Shown here in pieces: positions 4,277 to 58,397 of a stretch of 64,000 bases of DNA. The stretch lies in IMG/VR virus record IMGVR_UViG_3300037067_009128, positions 32,001-96,000 of that record; one strand, written 5' to 3'. Within the stretch, counting starts at the first letter, position 1; every line of letters begins with the position of its first letter. The stretch comes from a virus (taxonomy: Duplodnaviria > Caudoviricetes). The notes below the pieces were generated by a model. The model worked only from the letters and a program-made list of their open reading frames with translations, was not told the DNA's origin and did not search any database. The translations under genes and the position numbers were made by a program.

Positions 4277-5102
4277 TTAAAGGAATTTCTGGATGATTAA
4301 CTCTGTATGAGTTTAAGACTGTATCAACAATCCATTCTTCAAAATAACCATGGTCATCATTTTGAGCAAGATTAAACATTTCAAGTCTTGTTCCTTTCTT
4401 GAAATATTTTATAAATCGTCCATCTTTATATTCTTCAACTTTATTATCTTTAACCCATTGTTTTAAAGGTTCTAATTCATATGCTATTGCAACAACATTA
4501 GGTATTTTCTTACTAGTATTAGCCATGTGATTTAATCTTAAACTATAAATCTTTATTTGAGTTACTTGTCTTGTTTCCATGTTTAATCCTCATAAGCTTC
4601 TTTTTGTAATTCTTCAATATTTTCTTTAATATAATCAGATAATCCTTGAAATCCTTCATCTTCAAACTTATTATCAAATCCTCTGAATTTTACTCTAGCT
4701 GGATACGTATTTATTATATGTCCATCTTCATCAGTGTTACATATTATAGCCCATCCAAATAAATGAAGTGATCTATTAACCCACCATAATAATTTTGATT
4801 CTCTGAATTCTTCCCATGATTTTTCAAAAACCATTCGTTCTGACATTTTATATCTCCTTTTATGTGTTTAATTCTTTATTATAAAACCAATTAGCTACCC
4901 ACAAATTTCCTATAGTATCAAGTCTACACTTTGATTTAGGTATCCATTTTTCATCATAATTCCATTTTATTTGAATAGCCAATTCTGTTTCAAATAAAAC
5001 TATTGATGTATTATCTAAAATCTTTTTATAATTAAAAACATCATGAGGTAATATATCAATATTCAAGTTTACAACTGGTACATTTGGAATTTTATTAGCC
5101 AT
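4266..5102 (-). CDS. Three small hypothetical phage proteins (4266-4580, 4583-4846, 4860-5102)
   Basis: ORF track; tightly packed, same strand. Confidence 0.65.
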
Positions 5103-7835
5103 TTAATTACCCCACCTTTCTTTGAATACTTCAAATTCGGAATCAATTTTAACTTTTATTATATTAGAAATATCTATCTTTCTTTCAATACCATCGGGAT
5201 GAATTGAGAATGTTTTAGATGTCATTAGTTTAGGCGTAATTTCTTTTATCAATTCTAATTCATGTTCAGGTGATTCACCGTCAGCTTCATCATGTACTGT
5301 TATCAGGGGCCAACTTTCAAGATTATTATCCCTACAATAATCATATATTTTGATAAAACCCCATTGAGCAATATCGCTTGCTGTACCTTGTATTTGAGCG
5401 TTAATTCCGGCTCTTACAGCTTCTTCTCTAAAATATTTTTTATCACTAAATGCATCTGGTAGAATTCTACGTCTTCCAAATTTAGAATCTATCCAACCAT
5501 TACAAAGAATATGTTCTTTCATCTCAAGTTGATATTCTTTAGTTCTTTCAAATTCTGACCAAAACCATTCAGAATGTCTTTGTGCATCTTGCATTGTTAT
5601 TTTAGGTTCATCCCTTTCTAATTTCTCATTTACCTTTTCTACCTTAGTCTGATCACTCCCCAGATACATCCCTCCAAAATTACATAATTTAGTTAATTTT
5701 CTGTTTCTTTTCATTTGAAAATCAGTAGGATCATATTCAAGTTCTTTACCATTATAAAATACTTCTTTACAACCTCTCCAATGGATATCAATATTATTAT
5801 CTATATAATAAAGCATTATGGGGTCTTGTGCATAATCTGCCATGATTCTCATTTCAACTTGACTTTCATCACAACTCCAGAATCTCCAACCAGGTCTTGC
5901 TGTAAATACTCCACGTATGTTAGCAGTTTTAGTTTTTTTAGGCATATTTTGCAAATTAGGCCTTGAAGACAACCTTCCACTGACTGCTCCATGTAAGAGA
6001 TAACTCGTATGAACAAAACCATCTGGGTCCATTCTTGAATGCATTTTCTTACCTCTAAGGTAAGTAGAAATCATTTTTTGTTTTTTCTTATAATCTAATA
6101 ATGCAGCTATTAAATCTAATTCGCCTTTAAATTTATCTGGATGTTTTTCAAATTCTTCTCGTAGTCTTTTAATATGGTCTTGATCAGTACTTGCATAATC
6201 TGATGTTTGAGGTTGACCTTTTTCTTTTGTTTTAAATATAGGCCAACCAAGCTCAACAAACAATAATTCTTGTAATTGAACTGGGGAATTGAGATTGATT
6301 GTTCTTTGAAAAGTACTAAAGAACTCTTCTTCAATCTCTCTTAATTCTTTAGTATACTCATTAGCAATCTTTTCAGCATATTCTCTATCAAAGTATACCC
6401 CTCTTAATTCTGCCATTGTATAAACATGTTGTAATGGCATATAAAGATTATCCAATAAGAATTTGTTATCCAAGTAACAATTCTTTGCTCCTTGATAATT
6501 CTTTTTCTCTTCTTCAATCTCAGTAGCTAAATCTTCCCATAATCTAAGTGTTGCATCAGTATCTTTAGGGCCATATATACTCAATGTTGAAAGAGGAATG
6601 TCTGCATAATTTTCTACATCTTTTTTATCTTTTGTTAATAATCCATAAACAGATTGTTTATAACCTCTTAAATCAGGATATCTAACATCTGAGTTATATT
6701 CCAAACTATTTGGTACATTTTCATTTAATAGATAACTCATCAACATTGTGTCAGCAACAATATTATTAGGATGTATATCTAATTGCTTTATTAAGAACTG
6801 ATTATCGAATTTAACATTTTGATTACATTTCTCAATTTCTGGATTTTCTAACAATGTTTTCATTCTACCAACAACATATTCAGTAGCTGTAGGTCCTAAC
6901 CAGAAATAAAATTCATCTTTATCAAATGTTCCTAAATTATTAGTTTGTAAATATGATTCCCATTCTTTTTTTCTTTCATCATCAAAATCTTTTCCTTTAA
7001 CCCATAGAGGTAAGTAAATACCTGTATTTCTTTCACAAGAAAAACTAATACCTATGATTATATCCTCTCTCCATTCTTCAAAGATTACTTTTTTACCAAG
7101 TCTTTTCCTTTCAATTATTTCTTTCATCATTTGATATTTATTACCAGTAGTCTCAATATCATATACAAGTTTTTTACCTTGCATCAGATAATCAATGACA
7201 CCGTCAAATTCTTCAATAGTTTCTATTAAAATATAATCATTTTCTTTTTTAATATTTGTAGGTGAGTAATTTTTAATAAACTCTAAATCTTGTTCGAAAG
7301 GTAATATTAATTCTTCATTATTATATAAAGCACCTGGATGATAAGTTACAAAAATATCACAAGGATATTTTGTCATTGAATGTACTTGATTTCTTAATGA
7401 ATCTATTTTATCTTTTTTACCAAACATAGCTTCTACAACAGTTTTACCAAGAAGTATTATCTTTGGAGGTTTTACTTTAAAAAGTTCATTTGTTTTTAAG
7501 ATAGACTGAAGTATTAACTCAAGATTATCTGAACAACATTTAATATCTTTTTTATTAGGTGTCTTGTTTTCAGAATTTCTACAGAGTGTGATTGCTGTAT
7601 AAAAGAAATTAGTAATTCCTGTTTTTTCAATCTTTTCAAGAAATGTTTTTGAATCTCTTCCCCCAAGAATATTCTGATAATCTGTTCCTTTATCAGAAAT
7701 AAAAATATATTCTATGTATTTATCCCATTGACCTTCTGACACATCTTTAAACTTACCTTCATATATAAATTCTGGATTATAACAACTACAATTTATACAA
7801 TTATTATAAACTAGGTCAATCCCAAGTTTATCCAT
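5103..7835 (-). CDS. polA: Family A DNA polymerase with N-terminal UDG family-4-like domain and 3'-5' exonuclease
   Basis: CxxC, LCR, CC, IILLG, TYHP (UDG-like); YDIETTG (ExoI); SGRLSS; DESQVEMR (motif A); RKLTKLCNFGGMY (motif B); VHDE (motif C). Confidence 0.95.
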   Translation of the reverse strand: MDKLGIDLVYNNCINCSCYNPEFIYEGKFKDVSEGQWDKYIEYIFISDKGTDYQNILGGRDSKTFLEKIEKTGITNFFYTAITLCRNSENKTPNKKDIKCCSDNLELILQSILKTNELFKVKPPKIILLGKTVVEAMFGKKDKIDSLRNQVHSMTKYPCDIFVTYHPGALYNNEELILPFEQDLEFIKNYSPTNIKKENDYILIETIEEFDGVIDYLMQGKKLVYDIETTGNKYQMMKEIIERKRLGKKVIFEEWREDIIIGISFSCERNTGIYLPLWVKGKDFDDERKKEWESYLQTNNLGTFDKDEFYFWLGPTATEYVVGRMKTLLENPEIEKCNQNVKFDNQFLIKQLDIHPNNIVADTMLMSYLLNENVPNSLEYNSDVRYPDLRGYKQSVYGLLTKDKKDVENYADIPLSTLSIYGPKDTDATLRLWEDLATEIEEEKKNYQGAKNCYLDNKFLLDNLYMPLQHVYTMAELRGVYFDREYAEKIANEYTKELREIEEEFFSTFQRTINLNSPVQLQELLFVELGWPIFKTKEKGQPQTSDYASTDQDHIKRLREEFEKHPDKFKGELDLIAALLDYKKKQKMISTYLRGKKMHSRMDPDGFVHTSYLLHGAVSGRLSSRPNLQNMPKKTKTANIRGVFTARPGWRFWSCDESQVEMRIMADYAQDPIMLYYIDNNIDIHWRGCKEVFYNGKELEYDPTDFQMKRNRKLTKLCNFGGMYLGSDQTKVEKVNEKLERDEPKITMQDAQRHSEWFWSEFERTKEYQLEMKEHILCNGWIDSKFGRRRILPDAFSDKKYFREEAVRAGINAQIQGTASDIAQWGFIKIYDYCRDNNLESWPLITVHDEADGESPEHELELIKEITPKLMTSKTFSIHPDGIERKIDISNIIKVKIDSEFEVFKERWGN

Positions 7836-20089: not shown

Positions 20090-20661
20090 TTAATTCCTCT
20101 CATACATTCAGTTTTATCAATTTTAGCTTGAGTTAAAACCTTTTTAACATAATCTTGTGTTAAAACAGTTTTAGTATCTATTTTAATTATAGGTGCTTCA
20201 TTCATAATTAAATAATCAACTGTTTTCATATAAATCTTTTGAATTTCTAATATTTCTTCAAATGTAAATAATCTTTCACCTCTAGTTTCAAATCTTGATT
20301 TTAAAACATTTTCATCTGAACAATAAGTAATAAAAACTTGAACATCTTTATTTAATTCTTTATTGAAAAGGTATTTATAAACATAATCAATATCTGTATC
20401 TCTATTAAAGAATTTAGAATAAACCAAAGATGAAATTAATCCTCTATCTAGTACAAAATCATATTGTTTAGCTAAAGGAAATATTGAATCAAAGAAAAAT
20501 CTTGTGATCACTTCAATTTGATTCTCATTTAATTTCTCACGTTTATCTAATTTTAAGATATCTAATCTTTTTTTAATAACAGGGATACATTTAATATCAG
20601 AAATCATTTTTGCTAAAGTTGATTTCCCCGATAAATCAACTCCGTCTACTATTATTAACAT
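20086..20661 (-). CDS. dNMP kinase (thymidylate-kinase-like)
   Basis: DGVDLSGKST P-loop, VLDRGLISSLVY, RGE lid. Confidence 0.85.
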   Translation of the reverse strand: MLIIVDGVDLSGKSTLAKMISDIKCIPVIKKRLDILKLDKREKLNENQIEVITRFFFDSIFPLAKQYDFVLDRGLISSLVYSKFFNRDTDIDYVYKYLFNKELNKDVQVFITYCSDENVLKSRFETRGERLFTFEEILEIQKIYMKTVDYLIMNEAPIIKIDTKTVLTQDYVKKVLTQAKIDKTECMRGIK

Positions 20662-21052
20662 TCTTTTTTTCTCCTACTTCTGTTGAAAAATCTTTAATAA
20701 AAATAATTGAATCATTTGTAATTTTAAACCAATCTTTCAAATCTGGGTATTCATCATCCATTATTGATTTAATTATTTTTAACATATTACTTCTACCAAT
20801 TTGATTATGTCCTTGAAAATGGTCATAAACACATATACATCCATTAGGATTCCTTATAGCCATTTCAATAAATGTTATAGCTAATAATTTGGATCTTCCT
20901 TCTCCTATATGTTCAGTAGGATCTAATAACCATCTTATTGATTGTATATGTTGTTTTTGAGTTAATGTTAATTTATCCGGGTCTTTATCAATAGATAATA
21001 TCTCATTAATATCATTTAATTTTCGAACTAATGTATTTGAATTTATAGACAT
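20636..21052 (-). CDS. Hypothetical protein with P-loop-like GEGRS
   Basis: ORF track; degenerate Walker A-like segment. Confidence 0.5.
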   Translation of the reverse strand: MSINSNTLVRKLNDINEILSIDKDPDKLTLTQKQHIQSIRWLLDPTEHIGEGRSKLLAITFIEMAIRNPNGCICVYDHFQGHNQIGRSNMLKIIKSIMDDEYPDLKDWFKITNDSIIFIKDFSTEVGEKKNVNNSRRS

Positions 21053-27966: not shown

Positions 27967-28590
27967 TTAATCCTTAAATAAGGCATCTAGGATTTCTTTA
28001 TCAAGTTTATTATTTGACACTGTTTTGATTATTTTAACTAATTTTGCAATACCATTTCTACGTTTAGCTCCTAATATTTTAGCAATAGTTGTTCTTGAAG
28101 CATCGGGGAATGCTAATCTAAGTTGAAAAGTTTTTCCAGCTCTTTTACTTACACTAAAAATTATATCATGTAATCTGTGTATATCTTCTATAAATCTTTC
28201 ATCAATTTTAATTTCACCACTGTCGAAAACATATTCTTCAAGATTCTCAATTTCTAAATTAGGATCCATTCTTGAATTACAAGTATTTTTTCCTTCTTTA
28301 TCTGTTTTATTTATCTCTCTTATTACTCCTTGTTTAACTATGTGGTATACCCAACCTAAAGCATTGTCCCATCTATTCTGGTCGAATTTGAGTATAGCTT
28401 TCCAGAATGATTCAAATGCTATAATTTCAATATCACTTTCTTCAAATACTCCATGTTTATCATGAAAGTTTTTCAATCCAAAATATTTTTTTATCTTTTT
28501 AAAATAAAACTGTAATTCACAATCACTTGGGGATTTTTTATAATTCTCAATAAAAAGTAATAAATCTTCATTAGTTATTAGGTTTTTCAT
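27967..28590 (-). CDS. Phage RNA polymerase sigma-factor-like protein
   Basis: Region-2-like DIEIIAFESFWKAILKFDQNR...WVYHIVK; C-terminal HTH-like SRTTIAKILG. Confidence 0.65.
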   Translation of the reverse strand: MKNLITNEDLLLFIENYKKSPSDCELQFYFKKIKKYFGLKNFHDKHGVFEESDIEIIAFESFWKAILKFDQNRWDNALGWVYHIVKQGVIREINKTDKEGKNTCNSRMDPNLEIENLEEYVFDSGEIKIDERFIEDIHRLHDIIFSVSKRAGKTFQLRLAFPDASRTTIAKILGAKRRNGIAKLVKIIKTVSNNKLDKEILDALFKD

Positions 28591-42070: not shown

Positions 42071-43507
42071 ATGAGTATAATTAATGAGACCATTAAAGTA
42101 AAGTTTTATTTTAAATTTGAGAGGTATAAAATGGTATTACATTCAATTAGAGAATTTGATGCATTTGGTATAACTAAAGAAGAATTATTTAAAAAATTAC
42201 TTGCTGAAAATAATATACCTAAAGATAAAATACAAATAGATTATGCTATACCTCAAGGATTATTTAATGTTTTCAATAAAATTGATAATGATAATTGTTC
42301 ATGTTTTGTATATGTATATGGTAATGGATTTGAAACTGTATTACCTTTAACTATTGAAGCATTATATACTTTAATTGAGTATGATAGAATTTCAGACACA
42401 CAATATATTAAATATGGATTGAAACCATTTTTTGAATTAGGAAAAATTTGAGTGAGTTGATTCCGTAAGTCCTTTATAAGGGTTATTCTCTTGAATTAAA
42501 TATTAGACGTAATATTTTTCAATTGATAATTACAGTAGGCAGAATTGACAAACTCTTTCAACAAGAGGTAGACTTGATATCTTTGGATTTCAATATCAAG
42601 AGCTCGTTCAAAGAGGAAGTTTATCTCTTGTTTTTAATTTTATTAAAAAGGAGAATTAATTCAATGACATTAGTAGAAATGGAATCAAGAGTTAAAAAAA
42701 TAAAAGAACTTCAAGTAACATTAGAAAGACTTAATTTTTTAAGTAAAATTGAATATTTTCAAGGTATTGATTATTACATAACTCAATCTAATTCAAAAGA
42801 TATTTTAGAACAACATCGATTATACGATTCTAAATTATTAAAAGAGTTGATTAATTTAGATTTACTCAAGTGTATGACTTTGAAAAAGATAAAAGAAGTA
42901 GAGGAAGAAATTAAACAATTAGAAGCATGAAAACTTATCCAATTCAAATATTAAGGAAAGCATTCTTTCAATTAGTTGATAATAATAAATTTGTACATTT
43001 TACTTTATTTAATGCTAAACGAGGTAAACCTTTTAAAGTAAAAGCAAAGATTTCAAATTTATATGCTTCAAATCAAGGATTAAGTATTCATTTTAGTAAT
43101 GTTTATGTCAATAGAAAAAGATTTTTTAATATTTATCCATTAGTTAAAGATATTAGATGGAAAGAAACTCCATTTAATGAAGAAGTCTTACAACAAATAT
43201 GTGAATATATTAAAATTAAGAATTTAACATCAAGTTCTGATAAGAGGCTAGCAGGATCCTTGTCTGAAACTGCGTCACAACTGAATAGATCAGACTTAGA
43301 ACTTGATATTTAAAAAGATGAATTATGAAAGAAAAGAAAAAGTATTGTGTTTGTATGAATGGTCAAAATTATTATAGATATGCAACATCACCAAGTCAAG
43401 CTTTAAGATTATTTAATCAATTTTTTATGAAGAAATTTGGTAAAAGTAATATTACTGATATGTCAGTTGAATACAAACCAAGAGAATGGTCTAGAGTTGC
43501 ATTTTAA
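42071..43507 (+). CDS. Hypothetical proteins (42071-42451, 42664-42930, 42927-43313, 43325-43507)
   Basis: ORF track; second start moved to ATG 42664 after AAGGAG. Confidence 0.6.
42527..42636 (+). ncRNA. Candidate structured RNA / attenuator-like leader
   Basis: 14-bp helix 42560-73/42619-32 enclosing hairpin 42574-99, T-tract, upstream promoter-like motif. Confidence 0.45.
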
Positions 43508-43549
43508 TATAAATATATCCGAATAAAAGATGTATTATATTTAATCAAT

Positions 43550-43634
43550 CAAAAAAATAATTGAAAATAAAGTTACCATTTACTTTATTCCTTGCAAAGA
43601 AGGCCCTAGAATTGTAAAATTTTGGGGTCTTTTA
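43550..43634 (+). ncRNA. Candidate small antisense RNA complementary to the early-gene RBS motif
   Basis: Promoter motif 43529-43543, no plus-strand ORF, seed CCATTTACTTTATTCCTT (43576-43593), terminator 43601-43633. Confidence 0.65.
43601..43633 (+). terminator. Intrinsic terminator
   Basis: AGGCCCTAGAATT-GTAA-AATTTTGGGGTCT-TTT; three G-U pairs valid only on the plus strand. Confidence 0.75.
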
Positions 43635-43708
43635 GTGTTTATCGAAAATCAAAAGATGTATTAAATTTATTGTATCAATTTTAATAAAAATTAAATAAAA
43701 GGAATAAA

Positions 43709-44014
43709 ATGCCAAAAAAAGAATTTAATCCAGAAGATGTAAAAAAGATTTTAGAAACTCAGAATTTGAGTATTTCTGATGGCAATGCAATCAAATCAAC
43801 ACTTTTGAAGTTTAAAGATAAAGAATATCTTGAGATTAGAAAGTTTTATATGGATAACTCTGGTAGATTTTTACCTTCAAAAGGAGTTTGGATTCCTATT
43901 GAAACTGAGTATTCAAATATTGATGAAATTTTATTAGAGAGTATTAAGATACTTCCTAAAAAATATGTTGATAGTATTATTGAAGGATTAAAAATCTTTT
44001 CACAAGGAAAATAA
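43709..44014 (+). CDS. PC4/YdbC-like ssDNA-binding protein
   Basis: FKDKEYLEIRKFY...LPSKGVWIP. Confidence 0.75.
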   Translation: MPKKEFNPEDVKKILETQNLSISDGNAIKSTLLKFKDKEYLEIRKFYMDNSGRFLPSKGVWIPIETEYSNIDEILLESIKILPKKYVDSIIEGLKIFSQGK

Positions 44015-44020
44015 ACTATT

Positions 44021-44431
44021 ATGAGAATGGGTTTTACAGGTACTCAAAAAGGAATGACACCTAATCAATTATATATTCTTGATAAGATTATTAAAGAAAA
44101 GAATCCATATGAAGTACATCATGGTGATTGTGTTGGAGCTGATACAGAATTTCATCAAATGTGTAAAGCTTTTGGTTCAATTATTATAATACATCCTCCA
44201 GATATTTCAACAAAAAGAAGTAATTGTGAAGGAGATAAAATCTTACCGGTTAAACCTTATTTGGATAGAAATAAGGATATCGTTAATAGTTGTGATTTGT
44301 TGATAGTTTGTCCAAAAACTAGATTTGAAGAAATAAGATCTGGAACTTGGTCAACTAAACGGTATGCACAAAAAAGAGGTGTTAAATTTATTATAATTTA
44401 CTCTGATGGTTTAATATTTAATGGAGAATAA
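44021..44431 (+). CDS. SLOG-superfamily nucleotide-binding protein
   Basis: GFTGT, HHGDCVGAD, RNKDIV, SGTWST. Confidence 0.8.
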   Translation: MRMGFTGTQKGMTPNQLYILDKIIKEKNPYEVHHGDCVGADTEFHQMCKAFGSIIIIHPPDISTKRSNCEGDKILPVKPYLDRNKDIVNSCDLLIVCPKTRFEEIRSGTWSTKRYAQKRGVKFIIIYSDGLIFNGE

Positions 44432-51914: not shown

Positions 51915-51943
51915 TTGACAATTAAAATTTTATTTTATATATT
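51915..51943 (+). promoter_or_regulatory. Host sigma70-type early promoter
   Basis: TTGACA-17-TATATT with AT-rich upstream tract. Confidence 0.85.
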
Positions 51944-52545
51944 GTATTGTAAATAAATTTTGATTGATTTTTAATTATTTAATAATAAAAAGGAATAAAA
52001 TAAAATGGAACAAACAATACAATTTGGTTTTAATACAATTCAATCAAATAGATTTGTGGGAGAAAGAAAAAAAGTTTATTTAAATGATGATCAAATTGCA
52101 AAAATTGAAGAAAGAAAAAAAGAACAAAAGATTGAAAAGTTAGAATATCAATTTGATAAGTATGAATTTATTGTTAAAGAAATTAATGAAGAATTCAATA
52201 CAAAAGGGCCAAAGGGATTAAACAAATTAATGAAATCATGGAAAGATAAAAAACAATTTGAAGATTTTGATAAAGTTTATATTGATTTGATTGAAAAGTT
52301 TGGTGAAATAAAAGGTTCAATTAAGTTTATGTTTAAAATCAATAATGAATTTTTAAGATTTGATGATGGAGCAATCAATAAAACAAGAAATAGAATCAAA
52401 GTTCAAAGAAAAGAAAAGAAGTTACCAAGTACAAAAGAATTACAAACAAAAGAAGTTGTTAGTTCAATTGTCAATAGTTTTGTTACAAGGGATAAAAGAA
52501 GAAGGATTTTTTAATTAAAAGTTTTTAGTTAGTTTAAAATAATTT

Positions 52546-55500
52546 AAGGAGTAAAGTAAAAATGATTAATGTATTAAACAATGAAAAGTATCCTTCAAAA
52601 GAAGATATATTAAAAAGTTTACCTGATAAGATTGTTATTAAAACGAAACATCCTATTAACAAGGTAAAAGTTTTGAAATATGAAATTGAAAAAGAAGGAG
52701 ATACACCTTTAAATAGTAATGAATTTGAAACAATAGGGACATTTGAAGGTGAGTTAGAGATTACAGATGATATGAAATCTGCAATTTTAATATTAAATGA
52801 ATCTTTTAATAATGGTCCTTATATAAGTTTCCCTGAAAATGGAGAAAGAACATTCTCAATAAAGTTTAATGAAAAAATAACTGATGATTTTGAGATATCT
52901 CAAGAAGATCTTGATAAATTAATACTTCAAAGATCTGCTTGGGGAGCTTATACATGGATTTATTATTATAAAGACATGATATCAAGAATGAATAGTTATA
53001 ATTTTGATTTAACAAAAAAGGTTAAAAAAAATTCAAAAAGATTTCAATTGTTGTGGTTATTTGTGAATGTTTCTACATCATTTAAAAGAAGTGAATTAGT
53101 ATCAAAATTAGGTAAACCTGGTATAACAGATTTATTATGGAGCTTTGTTGGTGATAAACGAAATGATGGATTCTACAAAGCTCCTTTAATATTAAGAACT
53201 GGTAATGGTTGGTATGAATTAACTGATTATGGAAAATTAGTATACGATAATTCAAATAAATAAAAGGAGTTAAAGTTATATGTCAAGTTATATTAAAAAG
53301 TTGGTTAAAAAACAAACTAATGTAAATAAGTTTGATAGTAATTCAAATACAACAATTAATTATGTAAGAGGTAAACTTATATTAAAGGATTTTTCTGAGC
53401 TTGAATTATTATGTGTTGCAAGTAATTTGGAAAGTAATAAAGTAAAAGATAAAACAAAATTTAAAGTAATCACAGGTTAATAAAAGGAGTAAAGTAAAAA
53501 TGGAAAAGTTATTAAGTTCAGATAAATTAAAAGTAGTTGAAGCTTTATTTGATAATGAAATTCAAATATCAAGTTTCATTTTAGATCAGATTAGTGTTTC
53601 AAGAATTTCAAATTCTGATTCTGGTATAAAAATTGAAGAAGAAAATATTTTATCAATTCTAACAAGAGATTTAGAATCATTATCAAAAGTATTGGAATTT
53701 TTAAATGCTTTAGGTTGGGTAGAACATACATCCGATTGGGATCCTTGGTTAATGATTAATTTTGTTGATGAACAAGAACAGTTTGAGAGTCCTTCAGGTT
53801 ATTTTTTGTTTGATGTTGATAAGATCATCAATACAATTGTTATAGAAGCACCTGATGAAGAAAATCTTGAAGAAGACGATGAAAGAAGATTCTATAAAGA
53901 CGGGAAATATGTAATTCCTATAAATTTAATTAAGTCAATAGATATAATGAGATAAGCTAAAAAAAGGAGTAAAGTAAAATGGAAGATCATAATTTATATC
54001 AAGAGTTAAAAGATTTAATTGCAAAAGAAGTTCCAAAAGAAATTCTTGAAAAAGAAGGGTATGCAATTGAAGATGTTATTAATAGTTTGAAATGTACTCA
54101 AAATGAGTTTTGTCCTAATATGTCACTTATAGAGATATTTCAACAAGAAATTCTTTATTATAAGAATTTTGGAAGATCAGCTTTAGATTCTAATTATTGT
54201 GGGAAATCTATAGCAATTAATAATAAACCTGTTTGGAAACATTATCCTGGAGGTCATTTAGAATGTAATCCTACAGGTAGAACCACTTATAGAGAATTGA
54301 GAGATTTACTTAATCGTATGAGTGATTTTCAATTAGATTGTGATGTTACTATTGAAGACCCATATAATGAACCTTTTAATATAGTAAAAGGGGAATTAAC
54401 AATTTGTGGACCAGAACATAAGTTGGTAGATTTCTATCCTACAATAAGAATATTATATAAGGATTAAACTATGGAACAAATGATATCGTTTAATCTAGGT
54501 AAGAAATTTACCAAAAAAGAAATCAAAGAAATCAATAAAAAGAAAGATAATAATTCAGAAGTTATAACTTTTCAAGGGATTGACAAACAAACTTCTGGAT
54601 ATTATACACCTGTAAAAGATGACTTTGAAAAGGAAGATGAACAAGTTGATTGTAGATTTATTCAATTGTTACAACAATTAGATAATCAGTTGAGTCATAT
54701 AGATAACCCTATGATTGCAGATTTATTAATTCTGACAACCTTGAGAGATTTTGAAGATTCTCAAGCTGAACAAAAAATAAAAGATTATCAATTAATTTTA
54801 GGAGTAAAGTAAAATGATTAATGCAGTAAATGATATAATTGCAATATCAACAAGGATTTATGAAATCTTATTAAATGATTCTGCTGAAGGGTATATTGTA
54901 AGACTTTTTATTCATGATGAAAAGATACCAACTATATATCATTTTGATAATATACAAGAAATTAAATGGAATTGGTTTGGTACAGAAGAACAAATTAAGA
55001 ATCATACAAAACAATGGTTAATAGAACGTGAAGCAGAATTTGAGATTTTTAATTTAACTTCTGATTCATCTGAAGAGAAGTTTGTATTTCCAATGCATTA
55101 TGTTTATGAATTTTTAATAGGAATTAAGTAAAATGATTTTTATTGTAACATCTGTAATTTTAAAAAGTGAAATTTTTTCAAAAGATGTTTATCATCGTTT
55201 TAATTCAAATTCAATAGATGAAGTTGTTGTAAAATTAAAAAGAAAGTATCCAGATTTAATTAATTATTATTATCACATTCAGAGGAATAAAGTAAAATGA
55301 AATTAATTTTTTGTCCCATATGTACTGATATTATTAGATTATCTCATGATAATTCTACAGTTTATTGTGAATGTAAAAAATCATCAGGTAGATATGTTAA
55401 TCAAATTGATGCAATCATTTATGGAGAAGCAATTCCATTAGGTATTTCAAATGAATCTTTTTCAAAAGCTTTAAGGAATAGACCTCAAAATGGATTAGGT

Positions 55501-58397
55501 ATTGAATTTAAAGCATTTGTAATTCCAGTTGAATGTAAATCAATAATTATAGGATAAAGTAAGATGGAAGTAAATGATATTACAAATATGTTAAATTCTT
55601 GTGGATTAAACGTTACAACAATTGATCTTGTAGACAATAATACAAAATGTATGACTTGTCAATGTATGTATATGGTACAAGAGATGGCTTCTAGAATTTG
55701 GACATGCCCAAATTGTGGGAAAACAGGATTTAAACCTTTTGTAGATTTAATTAACAAATATGCTAAAATTGATATGATTACATATGAAGAATCTTGGAAT
55801 TTAGCAAATAATTTATTAATATTTAAACAAGAAGAATGTGAAAGTAAACATAAAATATATTTTGACGAAGACTATTTTTATAATGATTTGTTAGATTTTT
55901 ATAAAAGAAGAAAGTTAAATAAATTTCAAAAAATATTAAGGTTTTTAAGGATTAAACAATGATAATAAAAATATTAGATGAATTTGATGATGTTGTCGTT
56001 GAAGAATTTTATAATAAAGATGATTTTCAAGATTATTTTGACGAACATCCAGAATTGAATGTAGATCAAGTAATTATAAATGGTAGAATATTTTTTGATT
56101 GAGATGAAATTAATAATTATTTAGAGATACAAAATGAAATATAAAAATAGAACACTTGATGTTAATAACATGATTCAAATTTATTTAGATGTACATAAAG
56201 AAAAGATTACTTTATGTGAAGCTGAAAAAATGTTAATTGCAACAAGAACTCTTCCAAAGTTAAATTCTGTTAGAGGTAATGGAGTTCAATTAAGATCTCT
56301 TTGGAATAAAAAAGCATTACTTGGTGCTTATAAGAATGAAAATGGTAATATTATGATTAAAAGAATAGAAGAACGTGAAGAAATGTTATCTATGAAAGAG
56401 GCAGCCAATAGATTATTCTGTACTCCGGGTAATGTTTATATTTTAATTAATAATGGTAGATTACCTATAAGAATAATAGGAAAGAAAACAAAGTATTTAT
56501 ATCAATCTGATATTGATAATTATAATAAAGAATATTCAAAAGGAGTAAAGTAATGAGTGATATTAAAATTAAAAATATTCCAGAAACTGAGTATGAAGTT
56601 GTAGAAACTACAACTGGTCCAGAAAAAGTGGAAGAAAAACCTAAAAAGAAAGTTGGAATTATTGGTAATGGATCAGCAATGCAAGCATTTAGTTTATTAA
56701 TGGGTATGTCAGTTGTAAGTTTATATCCTGATAGTACTTTTTTATTCACTAAAGAAGATCATCCATCAAAAGATAATAGACCTTTAAGAAGAAATGAAAA
56801 GACTTGTCCTGATTGTGGTCAACCGTTTACACCACATGGTCATAATAAATCTGATAGATGTACACCATATTTTAAAGCAAAATTTAAAATATAAAAGGAG
56901 TAAAGTAAAATGGAAAGAAATCAATTACAACAATTAATATGTCAAAAGTTTTTAGGATTGTGGCTTGCATATCCTGAATTAAGATTTAATCAATTAGTTC
57001 TTAGCTTATCTGATTATCCGAATGATACATCTAAAATGTTTTATACAGAAGATGGGTGGTTTAATGATATGTTAACAAATGCTTCTAAGAATGGATTTTA
57101 TAGAACTATTAGTCCAGTTGATATTAAAGACAAACAATTAGAATCCATGCTTGTTGATGGGCTTATGATCGAAGATGTTATTAAAAAGGTTATTGAAATG
57201 AATGGGTTAATTGGAGTAGGATTGGTAAGTTTACAAGAAGAAATTAATAATATCATGACAAGAATTAGACTTGATATGAACAAGAATCATTAAAAGAAGC
57301 AATATATTTGTATTGATTGAAATTAAAATTTTATAATTTAATTAAAAGGCCTAAAATGAGTTTATTAAAAAAAGTTCCTAAGTATCATGCTAAAAAGATT
57401 CAAGAAATTGAGAAACTTACTGATTGTAGGTGTATAGGATATACAGGTGGACAACCTTCAAATGATATTGTACCTGAAGGAATTAATATTTTCTTATTCG
57501 TTTCTAATAAAGATGATGAAGAAATGGTAATTGATGCTAATAAAATTAGAGAAATTATGTGGAAAGGTGAAGATTTACAGTCACATATTATGTTTGGATT
57601 TAATCATAGCAATCCCGATTCATTTTGGATGATTGAAACTTATTATTATTAAAGGAAATTAAAAAAAGAAACTAAAGAGATTAAAAAGAGATAATAATGG
57701 AAACTAAAACAATTAATGCAATAGATTTATCTGTACAACTAGAAAGACTTTATCCTGTTGAATGGAATAAACAAAATGAAAGAGAAGATGATAATATTAT
57801 TCTTCAAGGTAATATTATTATTGATAAAGAATATATTTGTCCTATAGATATCTATTTTAATATAGATGATGGATTTAATTTCTTTGAAGATGCTTTACCT
57901 AAGATAAATCAAAATAGTTTTGTTGTATTTAGAAAGATTGATAATGAGATTAGGATTTACCCTATAGAATGGTTAATGTGTGAAATACCATTTTTTGGAT
58001 TAGCATCTGAAAATGATGATACTACAATCATATTAATACGAGTATACGATATAGATTATGAATTTATAAAAGTTTATTGTGATACAAAATTAATTAAGGA
58101 GTAAAGATTATGGGATCTTTAGTACGTTCTAAAAATTGTGCAAAGATAGTAAGATTATATTATAATGATATTAAAAATATTTATAAAAAAGAAAAAAATT
58201 GGGATATAGATATTTTAGATAAAAATGAATATGTTTATATTGTAATAAAAACAGCTGCTGAAAATTTTGTGTCTATTCCCATAATAGAAGGTGATGATTG
58301 TATAAGAGGAATGTGGATTGATATTAATATAACTGAAGAAAGAATGAAAGAGTTAATTCCTAATCTTTATAAGTATTTAATTAAGGAGTAAACCATG
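52546..58397 (+). repeat. Dispersed repeat (A)GGAGTAAAGTAAAA(A)TG at gene starts
   Basis: Exact GGAGTAAAGTAAAA at 52548, 53486, 53966, 54801, 56897; variants before 53280, 55133, 55297, 55564, 56553, 58110, 58395. Confidence 0.9.
56134..56553 (+). CDS. Excisionase-like (HTH_17) DNA-binding protein
   Basis: MLSMKEAANRLFCTPGNVYILINNGRLP. Confidence 0.75.
   Translation: MKYKNRTLDVNNMIQIYLDVHKEKITLCEAEKMLIATRTLPKLNSVRGNGVQLRSLWNKKALLGAYKNENGNIMIKRIEEREEMLSMKEAANRLFCTPGNVYILINNGRLPIRIIGKKTKYLYQSDIDNYNKEYSKGVK

Follow-up and report, generated by a model that had tools for sequence, protein, structure and literature searches.

The DNA analysed here, a 64-kb window comprising bases 32001-96000 of a 117,325-bp IMG/VR phage record (GC 25%, completeness rating 95%), belongs to an uncultured phage, and identical DNA was found in two sequencing runs, one from groundwater and one from landfill. 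Positions refer to the window unless marked as genome positions, and the features are collected in Table 1. The locus of interest is a 201-nt intergenic gap between a 60-aa gene (43325-43507) and a PC4-like gene (43709-44014; PF02229 is recorded for its product), and it contains, in this order, a AAGATGTATTATATTT promoter motif (P1), a weak hairpin, an 18-mer seed, a terminator and a second copy of the promoter motif (P2).

A preliminary description of this DNA had proposed that the gap holds a promoter-terminator unit without an ORF, encoding a small RNA of ~85 nt that would block translation of an early regulon. As sequence anatomy the unit stands: all sequences quoted for it lie where they were placed, the two promoter copies are present, and nowhere between P1 and the terminator does the plus strand contain an ORF of 20 aa or more. 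The length of ~85 nt holds only if transcription starts at P1. Genome-wide, this locus is the sole site at which a promoter motif is followed by a strong terminator within about 55 nt and no ORF intervenes. Rfam and tRNA scans of the 64-kb window returned no match: nothing in the window reached the Rfam gathering score, and region 43400-43800 gave only noise at E values up to 10. The candidate RNA lies outside every curated RNA family, c4 included.

Table 1. Features of the locus, of the tagged starts and of related sites (window positions unless marked as genome positions)
Feature	Position	Strand	Remarks
Head and tail genes	genome 1-25 kb	+	
Replication genes: SbcC, PolA, primase, helicases, methyltransferases, TS homologues	genome 25-63.6 kb	-	
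Ligase, radical-SAM protein, TS homologue, numerous small ORFans	from genome 63.7 kb	+	
P1, promoter-like motif aaGATGTATTATATTTAAT	43527-43545 (core AAGATGTATTATATTT, 43527-43542)	+	class GAT-N4-TATATTT(G[TC]A)
Weak hairpin AAUAAAGU/ACUUUAUU, loop UUACCAUU	43566-43589	+	-4.3 kcal/mol; loop unpaired p ~1.0
Anti-TIR seed CCATTTACTTTATTCCTT (RNA CCAUUUACUUUAUUCCUU)	43576-43593	+	reverse complement of AAGGAATAAAGTAA-ATGG
12-codon minus-strand ORF	43579 down to 43541	-	same 18-mer gives perfect SD and ATG
Intrinsic terminator, 16-bp stem, loop of 4, four G-U pairs, U-rich tail	43598-43633	+	from folding
P2, second exact motif copy	43653-43671 (core 43653-43668)	+	ATG of gene 43709-44014 is 40 nt downstream
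TIR of gene 43709 (AAGGAAUAAA AUG)	43698-43711	+	could pair in cis with 43584-43593, ~9-10 bp
Strict promoter copies	3211, 7865, 17263	-	
Strict promoter copies	32093, 35506, 38040, 38740, 46589, 57303	+	
TTGACA-17-TATATT promoter-like site before tagged block	51915-51943	+	pattern match
Tagged start 52005	51992-52007	+	1 mismatch (GGAATAAAATAA A ATG)
Tagged start 52562	52548-52564	+	exact 12-mer
Tagged start 53500	53486-53502	+	exact 12-mer
Tagged start 53979	53966-53981	+	exact 12-mer; joint-best pairing, -20.7 kcal/mol
Tagged start 54814	54801-54816	+	exact 12-mer; upstream gene stops at a TAA within the tag
Tagged start 55133	55120-55135	+	1 mismatch
Tagged start 55297	55284-55299	+	exact 12-mer, GGAA variant; 14 perfect bp with seed
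Tagged start 55564	55551-55566	+	partial match (AGGATAAAGTAAG ATG)
Tagged start 56553	56542-56555	+	exact 12-mer; TAATG overlap
Tagged start 56910	56897-56912	+	exact 12-mer; joint-best pairing, -20.7 kcal/mol
Tagged start 58110	58098-58112	+	partial match (GGAGTAAAGATT ATG)
UUUUCAUAGCUCCUCCUU after head protease/capsid-like gene 4551-5786	genome 5787-5845, outside the window		5 nt before terminator, -17.1 kcal/mol

The promoter motif class

The phage-specific promoter class to which P1 and P2 belong is real, because nine of the ten copies of its strict form, TATATTTG[TC]A, lie between genes and on the strand of the gene that follows, and because the relatives L126 and G001 (~45% PolA identity) keep the motif in front of pol and other genes. 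Allowing up to two mismatches, the motif has 12 matches against 2.25 expected. The nine intergenic strict copies are followed by an ATG at 20-63 nt (303 nt in one); strict copies precede PolA and other genes of the replication block or the plus block, often carry GA(T/A)G-N4 in front, and have no counterpart in the structural blocks. Looser copies with the GATG extension stand before three further operons, at distances of 33-66 nt. P1 itself deviates from the strict consensus, having TATATTTAAT where the strict form has TATATTTGTA; the same variant is found upstream of gene 20636-21052 on the minus strand.

The likeness between P1 and P2 extends past the core (43520-43550 and 43645-43680), following the pattern CGAA ... 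AAAAGATGTATTA.ATTTA ... ATCAAT, and these common flanking bases suggest that the RNA unit arose when the promoter of gene 43709 was duplicated. As for a protein that might recognize this class, a 207-aa ORF (27967-28590, minus strand) downstream of the DnaB-like helicase gives a sub-threshold match to Sigma70_r2 (18.9-20.4 bits, cut-off 24) and shows a hint of a C-terminal HTH; judged by these matches, the phage promoters may be read by its product.

A private start-site tag and its inverted copy

The exact 12-mer GGA[AG]TAAAGTAA occurs eight times on the two strands of the 117-kb genome: seven copies mark gene starts in the interval 52548-56908, and the eighth, the sole exact copy outside the 52.5-57 kb block, is inverted at 43580-43591 and continues into ATGG. 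As the mean over 300 block-wise dinucleotide shuffles is 0.13 copies, falling to 0.007 when (A)ATG is required as well, a chance origin of the inverted stretch is excluded, and we regard it as a true copy of the tag. The pairings quoted earlier hold for the starts at 53979, 56910 and 55297; the other starts named alongside them (52005, 52562, 53500, 54814, 55133, 55564, 56553 and 58110) match the tag in whole or in part.

Likeness between the tag copies ends at the edges of the tag. The tagged proteins show no detectable paralogy among themselves, which rejects a paralogue origin of the tag, and have no family match in Pfam or PHROG (ORFans); as the genes are non-paralogous and without family, the common tag is kept at the nucleotide level. 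In its GGAGTAAAGTAAA form (copies at 54801-58109), the tag contains two TAA triplets in different frames. At five of the 11 junctions the upstream gene ends on a TAA of the tag, and one more junction is an ATGA overlap; because it serves upstream stops in this way, the tag doubles as a compact stop-restart junction. The preliminary description had offered the RNA as the reason for the conservation of the spacer; other reasons may apply: the tag also provides upstream stops, and the comparable tag of phage T4 is read by protein (PMC1702504).

The tagged block is preceded by a promoter-like site of host type. The pattern TTGACA-17-TATATT has three matches in the genome, and only the one at 51915-51943 lies outside a convincing coding region, the gene caller having put a probably spurious 36-aa ORF across it. 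This one sigma-70-like promoter lends the label "early regulon" its support and is the sole basis for it. The promoter classes thus differ, the RNA having the phage-specific motif and the tagged block the host-type one; however, a strict phage promoter lies inside the tagged block (57303), and temporal separation of the two is therefore not clean.

Predicted fold, pairing with gene starts and a second module

The element at 43598-43633 fits an intrinsic (Rho-independent) terminator, with a stable stem-loop and a U-rich tract. It had been described as a plus-strand terminator, and indeed its fold is stable on that strand only (-18.9 kcal/mol vs. -4.0 kcal/mol on the minus strand). The 89-nt RNA as a whole folds with -25.3 kcal/mol (z = -4.7), while the gap read on its minus strand gives z = -0.56. 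The predicted RNA has CCAUUU (anti-AUG) in the loop and CCUU (anti-SD) in the linker, both with an unpaired probability of 0.8-1.0. The hairpin proposed earlier (43566-73/43582-89) is thus predicted to present the anti-start in its loop, but the fold is weak at -4.3 kcal/mol; likewise, the proposed layout of an exposed seed applies to the predicted anti-start and anti-SD, but not to the middle 8 nt of the seed, which are predicted to lie inside this stem. An antiterminator role of the seed was considered and rejected, as only 4 bp (CCUU/AAGG) are able to compete with the terminator.

We calculated duplexes of the 18-nt seed with all 184 called starts. Eight starts reach -16 kcal/mol or lower, and all eight are in the tagged block; the tagged starts thus come first, as the preliminary description would have it. 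At -14 kcal/mol or lower there are 14 starts, vs. a mean of 0.49 for shuffled seeds, and four of the 14 fall outside the tagged set at 52.0-58.1 kb. The count at -16 kcal/mol is equalled or exceeded only by the reverse complements of the TIRs of the block and of the TIR of gene 61203. A ranking corrected for accessibility gave a different result: compared with 60 shuffles of 50 nt, the RNA is no outlier (seven starts at -10 kcal/mol or lower; shuffle mean 3.4, maximum 11). Counts of contiguous helices are uninformative, because U-rich windows throughout this genome of 25% GC pair with A-rich TIRs. The pairing signal is the exact inverted tag, not energy, and the seed complements the SD and start codon of distant mRNAs beyond what chance predicts.

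The genome contains a second element of similar construction. Sense-strand sites of the form CAT-N4-10-(CTCCT/TTCCT/CCTCC)T number only seven in the genome, and two of them lie 5-7 nt before its two strongest intergenic terminators, one being the 43576-43593 locus and the other the UUUUCAUAGCUCCUCCUU element after the capsid-like gene. Read in reverse complement, the latter gives a full SD-spacer-AUG; it mimics the 16S 3' end and has no specific target set, and on the minus strand its region would start a 13-codon ORF. That two inverted TIRs abut the strongest terminators speaks for a module working at the RNA level and against a random relic.

A candidate anti-RBS RNA and its alternatives

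We propose, with a probability of roughly 0.4, that the gap encodes a trans-acting anti-RBS RNA directed against the tagged block. A short plus-strand RNA would end at the terminator; it would be ~85 nt long if started at P1, and would otherwise form the 3' end of the upstream operon. An 18-nt stretch of this RNA would be antisense to the private SD-spacer-AUG tag found on about 9-11 unrelated ORFans at 52.0-58.1 kb. The exposed loop (anti-AUG) and linker (anti-SD) would begin pairing with the tagged mRNAs, and the weak hairpin would then open to give a duplex of 15-18 bp over the SD and the start codon, thereby blocking the 30S subunit and perhaps exposing the mRNA to decay. Because the RNA shares its promoter class with the replication genes and the block has a host-type promoter, translation of the block would be lowered once the phage promoters are active. 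The sequence anatomy of the locus and its non-randomness are established; from these we infer the transcription of the candidate RNA, its pairing in vivo and its timing.

A broader version can be put forward only tentatively, and we consider it somewhat doubtful: in what would be a lytic phage, an RNA of ~85 nt made from the promoter class of the phage would take the place of a RegB/RegA-type protein and silence the host-promoter ORFan block via the tag, the combination of anti-TIR and terminator being, maybe, a reusable module, since a second copy ends the capsid mRNA. If the RNA acts as proposed, a temporal gene class would be turned off by a simple, evolvable switch in which an RNA recognizes a private tag common to several start sites, and tag plus anti-tag would provide a rule for finding such circuits and for assigning ORFans to regulons in metagenomic phages. 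To our knowledge, early-gene shut-off is well understood for only a few model phages, in which it is exerted by proteins (T4 RegB, RegA).

A different and rather unlikely explanation is that the 18-mer does not act as antisense but repeats the start-site cassette of the block in inverted orientation, being either a relic of rearrangement or the working RBS of the 12-codon minus-strand ORF (MVTLFSIIFLID); the terminator would then merely end the upstream operon, and P1 would be a duplicate of P2. All other copies of the tag are working gene starts, and the inverted copy retains SD, spacer, ATG and an open 12-codon frame; the similar flanks of P1 and P2 suggest duplication; and the tag has the separate reasons for conservation described above, namely the upstream stop at five of 11 junctions and the precedent of a protein-read tag in T4 (PMC1702504). 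There is also a sigma-70-like site on the minus strand (TTGAAA-16-TATAAT, 11/12 matches, 44210-44183), which lies inside gene 44021-44431 and aims at the inverted tag 600 nt off. However, this is the nearest minus-strand promoter-like site to the 12-codon ORF, and such matches are near chance frequency on that strand (51 vs. 38.5 +/- 6.0 expected). Moreover, the 12-aa product is unconvincingly short, its hydrophobicity is an effect of base composition, and the structure is specific to the plus strand; an unselected relic would be unlikely to stay perfect at 18 of 18 positions, and two independent relics do not explain why a second inverted TIR adjoins a strong terminator.

It is also unlikely, to a greater degree, that the RNA is real but acts as a general anti-SD or on host mRNAs, with the same function as the CUCCUCCUU element before the capsid-gene terminator. 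The occurrence of two anti-TIR-plus-terminator modules in the genome, the generic nature of the capsid-gene module as a 16S 3'-end mimic with no private targets, and the ability of UUCCUU to pair with many ordinary AAGGAA starts (including the four starts beyond the tagged set noted above) would all be in keeping with such a function, but the tag match runs 12 nt past the SD and includes AUGG, which a generic anti-SD would not need.

Highly improbable, finally, is an effect in cis, in which 43584-43593 of read-through transcripts would pair with 43698-43707 in the TIR of the next gene and silence gene 43709 while P2 transcripts escape: this pairing does appear in the centroid structure predicted for the 201-nt intergenic RNA, and P2 lies between the two halves, as promoters do in T4 e, 49, soc and I-TevI, whose TIRs can pair with a segment further upstream (PMC3014915), but here the -18.9 kcal/mol terminator stands between the halves, the complementarity is AU-rich, covers only ~10 bp and is shorter than that to the distant block, the remaining 8 nt of the seed (GTAA, ATGG) fit that block and not gene 43709, and the MFE fold favours the local hairpin.

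Comparable systems and relatives

Among known systems, the proposed anti-RBS RNA would be functionally closest to the c4 antisense RNA of phages P1 and P7, which is ~77 nt long and blocks translation through loop-borne complementarity around the RBS of a phage mRNA (PMC12197685; PMC8198154). Like c4, the candidate would be a phage small RNA with complementary stretches in loops and a target mRNA made elsewhere. However, c4 acts in the immunity circuit of a temperate phage, has icd-ant as its one target operon and is cut out of the same transcript, whereas the candidate would address about ten unrelated genes via their common tag.

The tag itself resembles that of the T4 early RBSs, which consists of GGAG and an A-rich run (consensus GGAGAAUAAAA) and is read by RegB/S1 (PMC1702504). 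As in the RegB/S1 and RegA systems, a private RBS extension, here GGAGUAAAGUAAA, would label the mRNAs of one temporal class to be shut off at the TIR (PMC1702504, PMC3014915); in T4 the reader is a protein, either nuclease or repressor, whereas the candidate reader here is an RNA. Searches of the genome for homologues of RegB (PF10715) and RegA (PF01818) gave no match at E values up to 1, so neither protein appears to be available to read the tag instead, and an unrelated RNA-binding protein possibly could.

An anti-SD stretch just before a terminator at an mRNA 3' end is also found in icaR of S. aureus, in whose 3'UTR, as between the 5'- and 3'-UTRs of B. subtilis hbs, an anti-SD near the terminator pairs with the SD (PMC3868564, PMC5737220). 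These RNAs pair with the SD of their own mRNA, whereas the candidate is complementary to genes 8-15 kb away. Self-pairing of the icaR type found no partner in the upstream genes: 42927 and 43325 are without an SD, and gene 42664 shares only AAGGAG with the complement of the seed.

The phage has few relatives in the collections searched. Megablast and tblastn against GenBank phages gave nothing close, and the nearest PolA shows 45-48% identity. Searches for a related locus with two neighbouring proteins and pol found no relative; homologue searches of the neighbouring proteins returned only the query itself or identical copies, cluster look-ups only 100% identical DNA, and no relative was among the 80 loci retrieved from metagenomes with a neighbouring protein. 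Scanning IMG/VR with the tag gave at least 118 single, unrelated matches, and with the hairpin pattern a ligase coding sequence only. The pol alignment led to one syntenic relative, G001, and alignment of lineage-specific proteins to G001 only.

G001 is a 57-kb record, 46% complete, with ~45% amino-acid identity, and it keeps the phage promoter class. The fragment has neither tag nor anti-tag, which shows only that both are lineage-specific. Before its own block of small ORFans (L213:4173-4374, minus strand), G001 has a GC-rich element followed by TTGACA-17-TATATT, and the leaders in that block, inside which the contig ends, carry a different, weaker motif, AACAAACAAGGA, in two to three copies. 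Just before a TATATTTGTA promoter (L213:8460-8661, minus strand), the same record contains a long nested hairpin, GCCTGATAGC...GCTATCAGGC, with a T run, representing a complex terminator or, alternatively, a structured small RNA.
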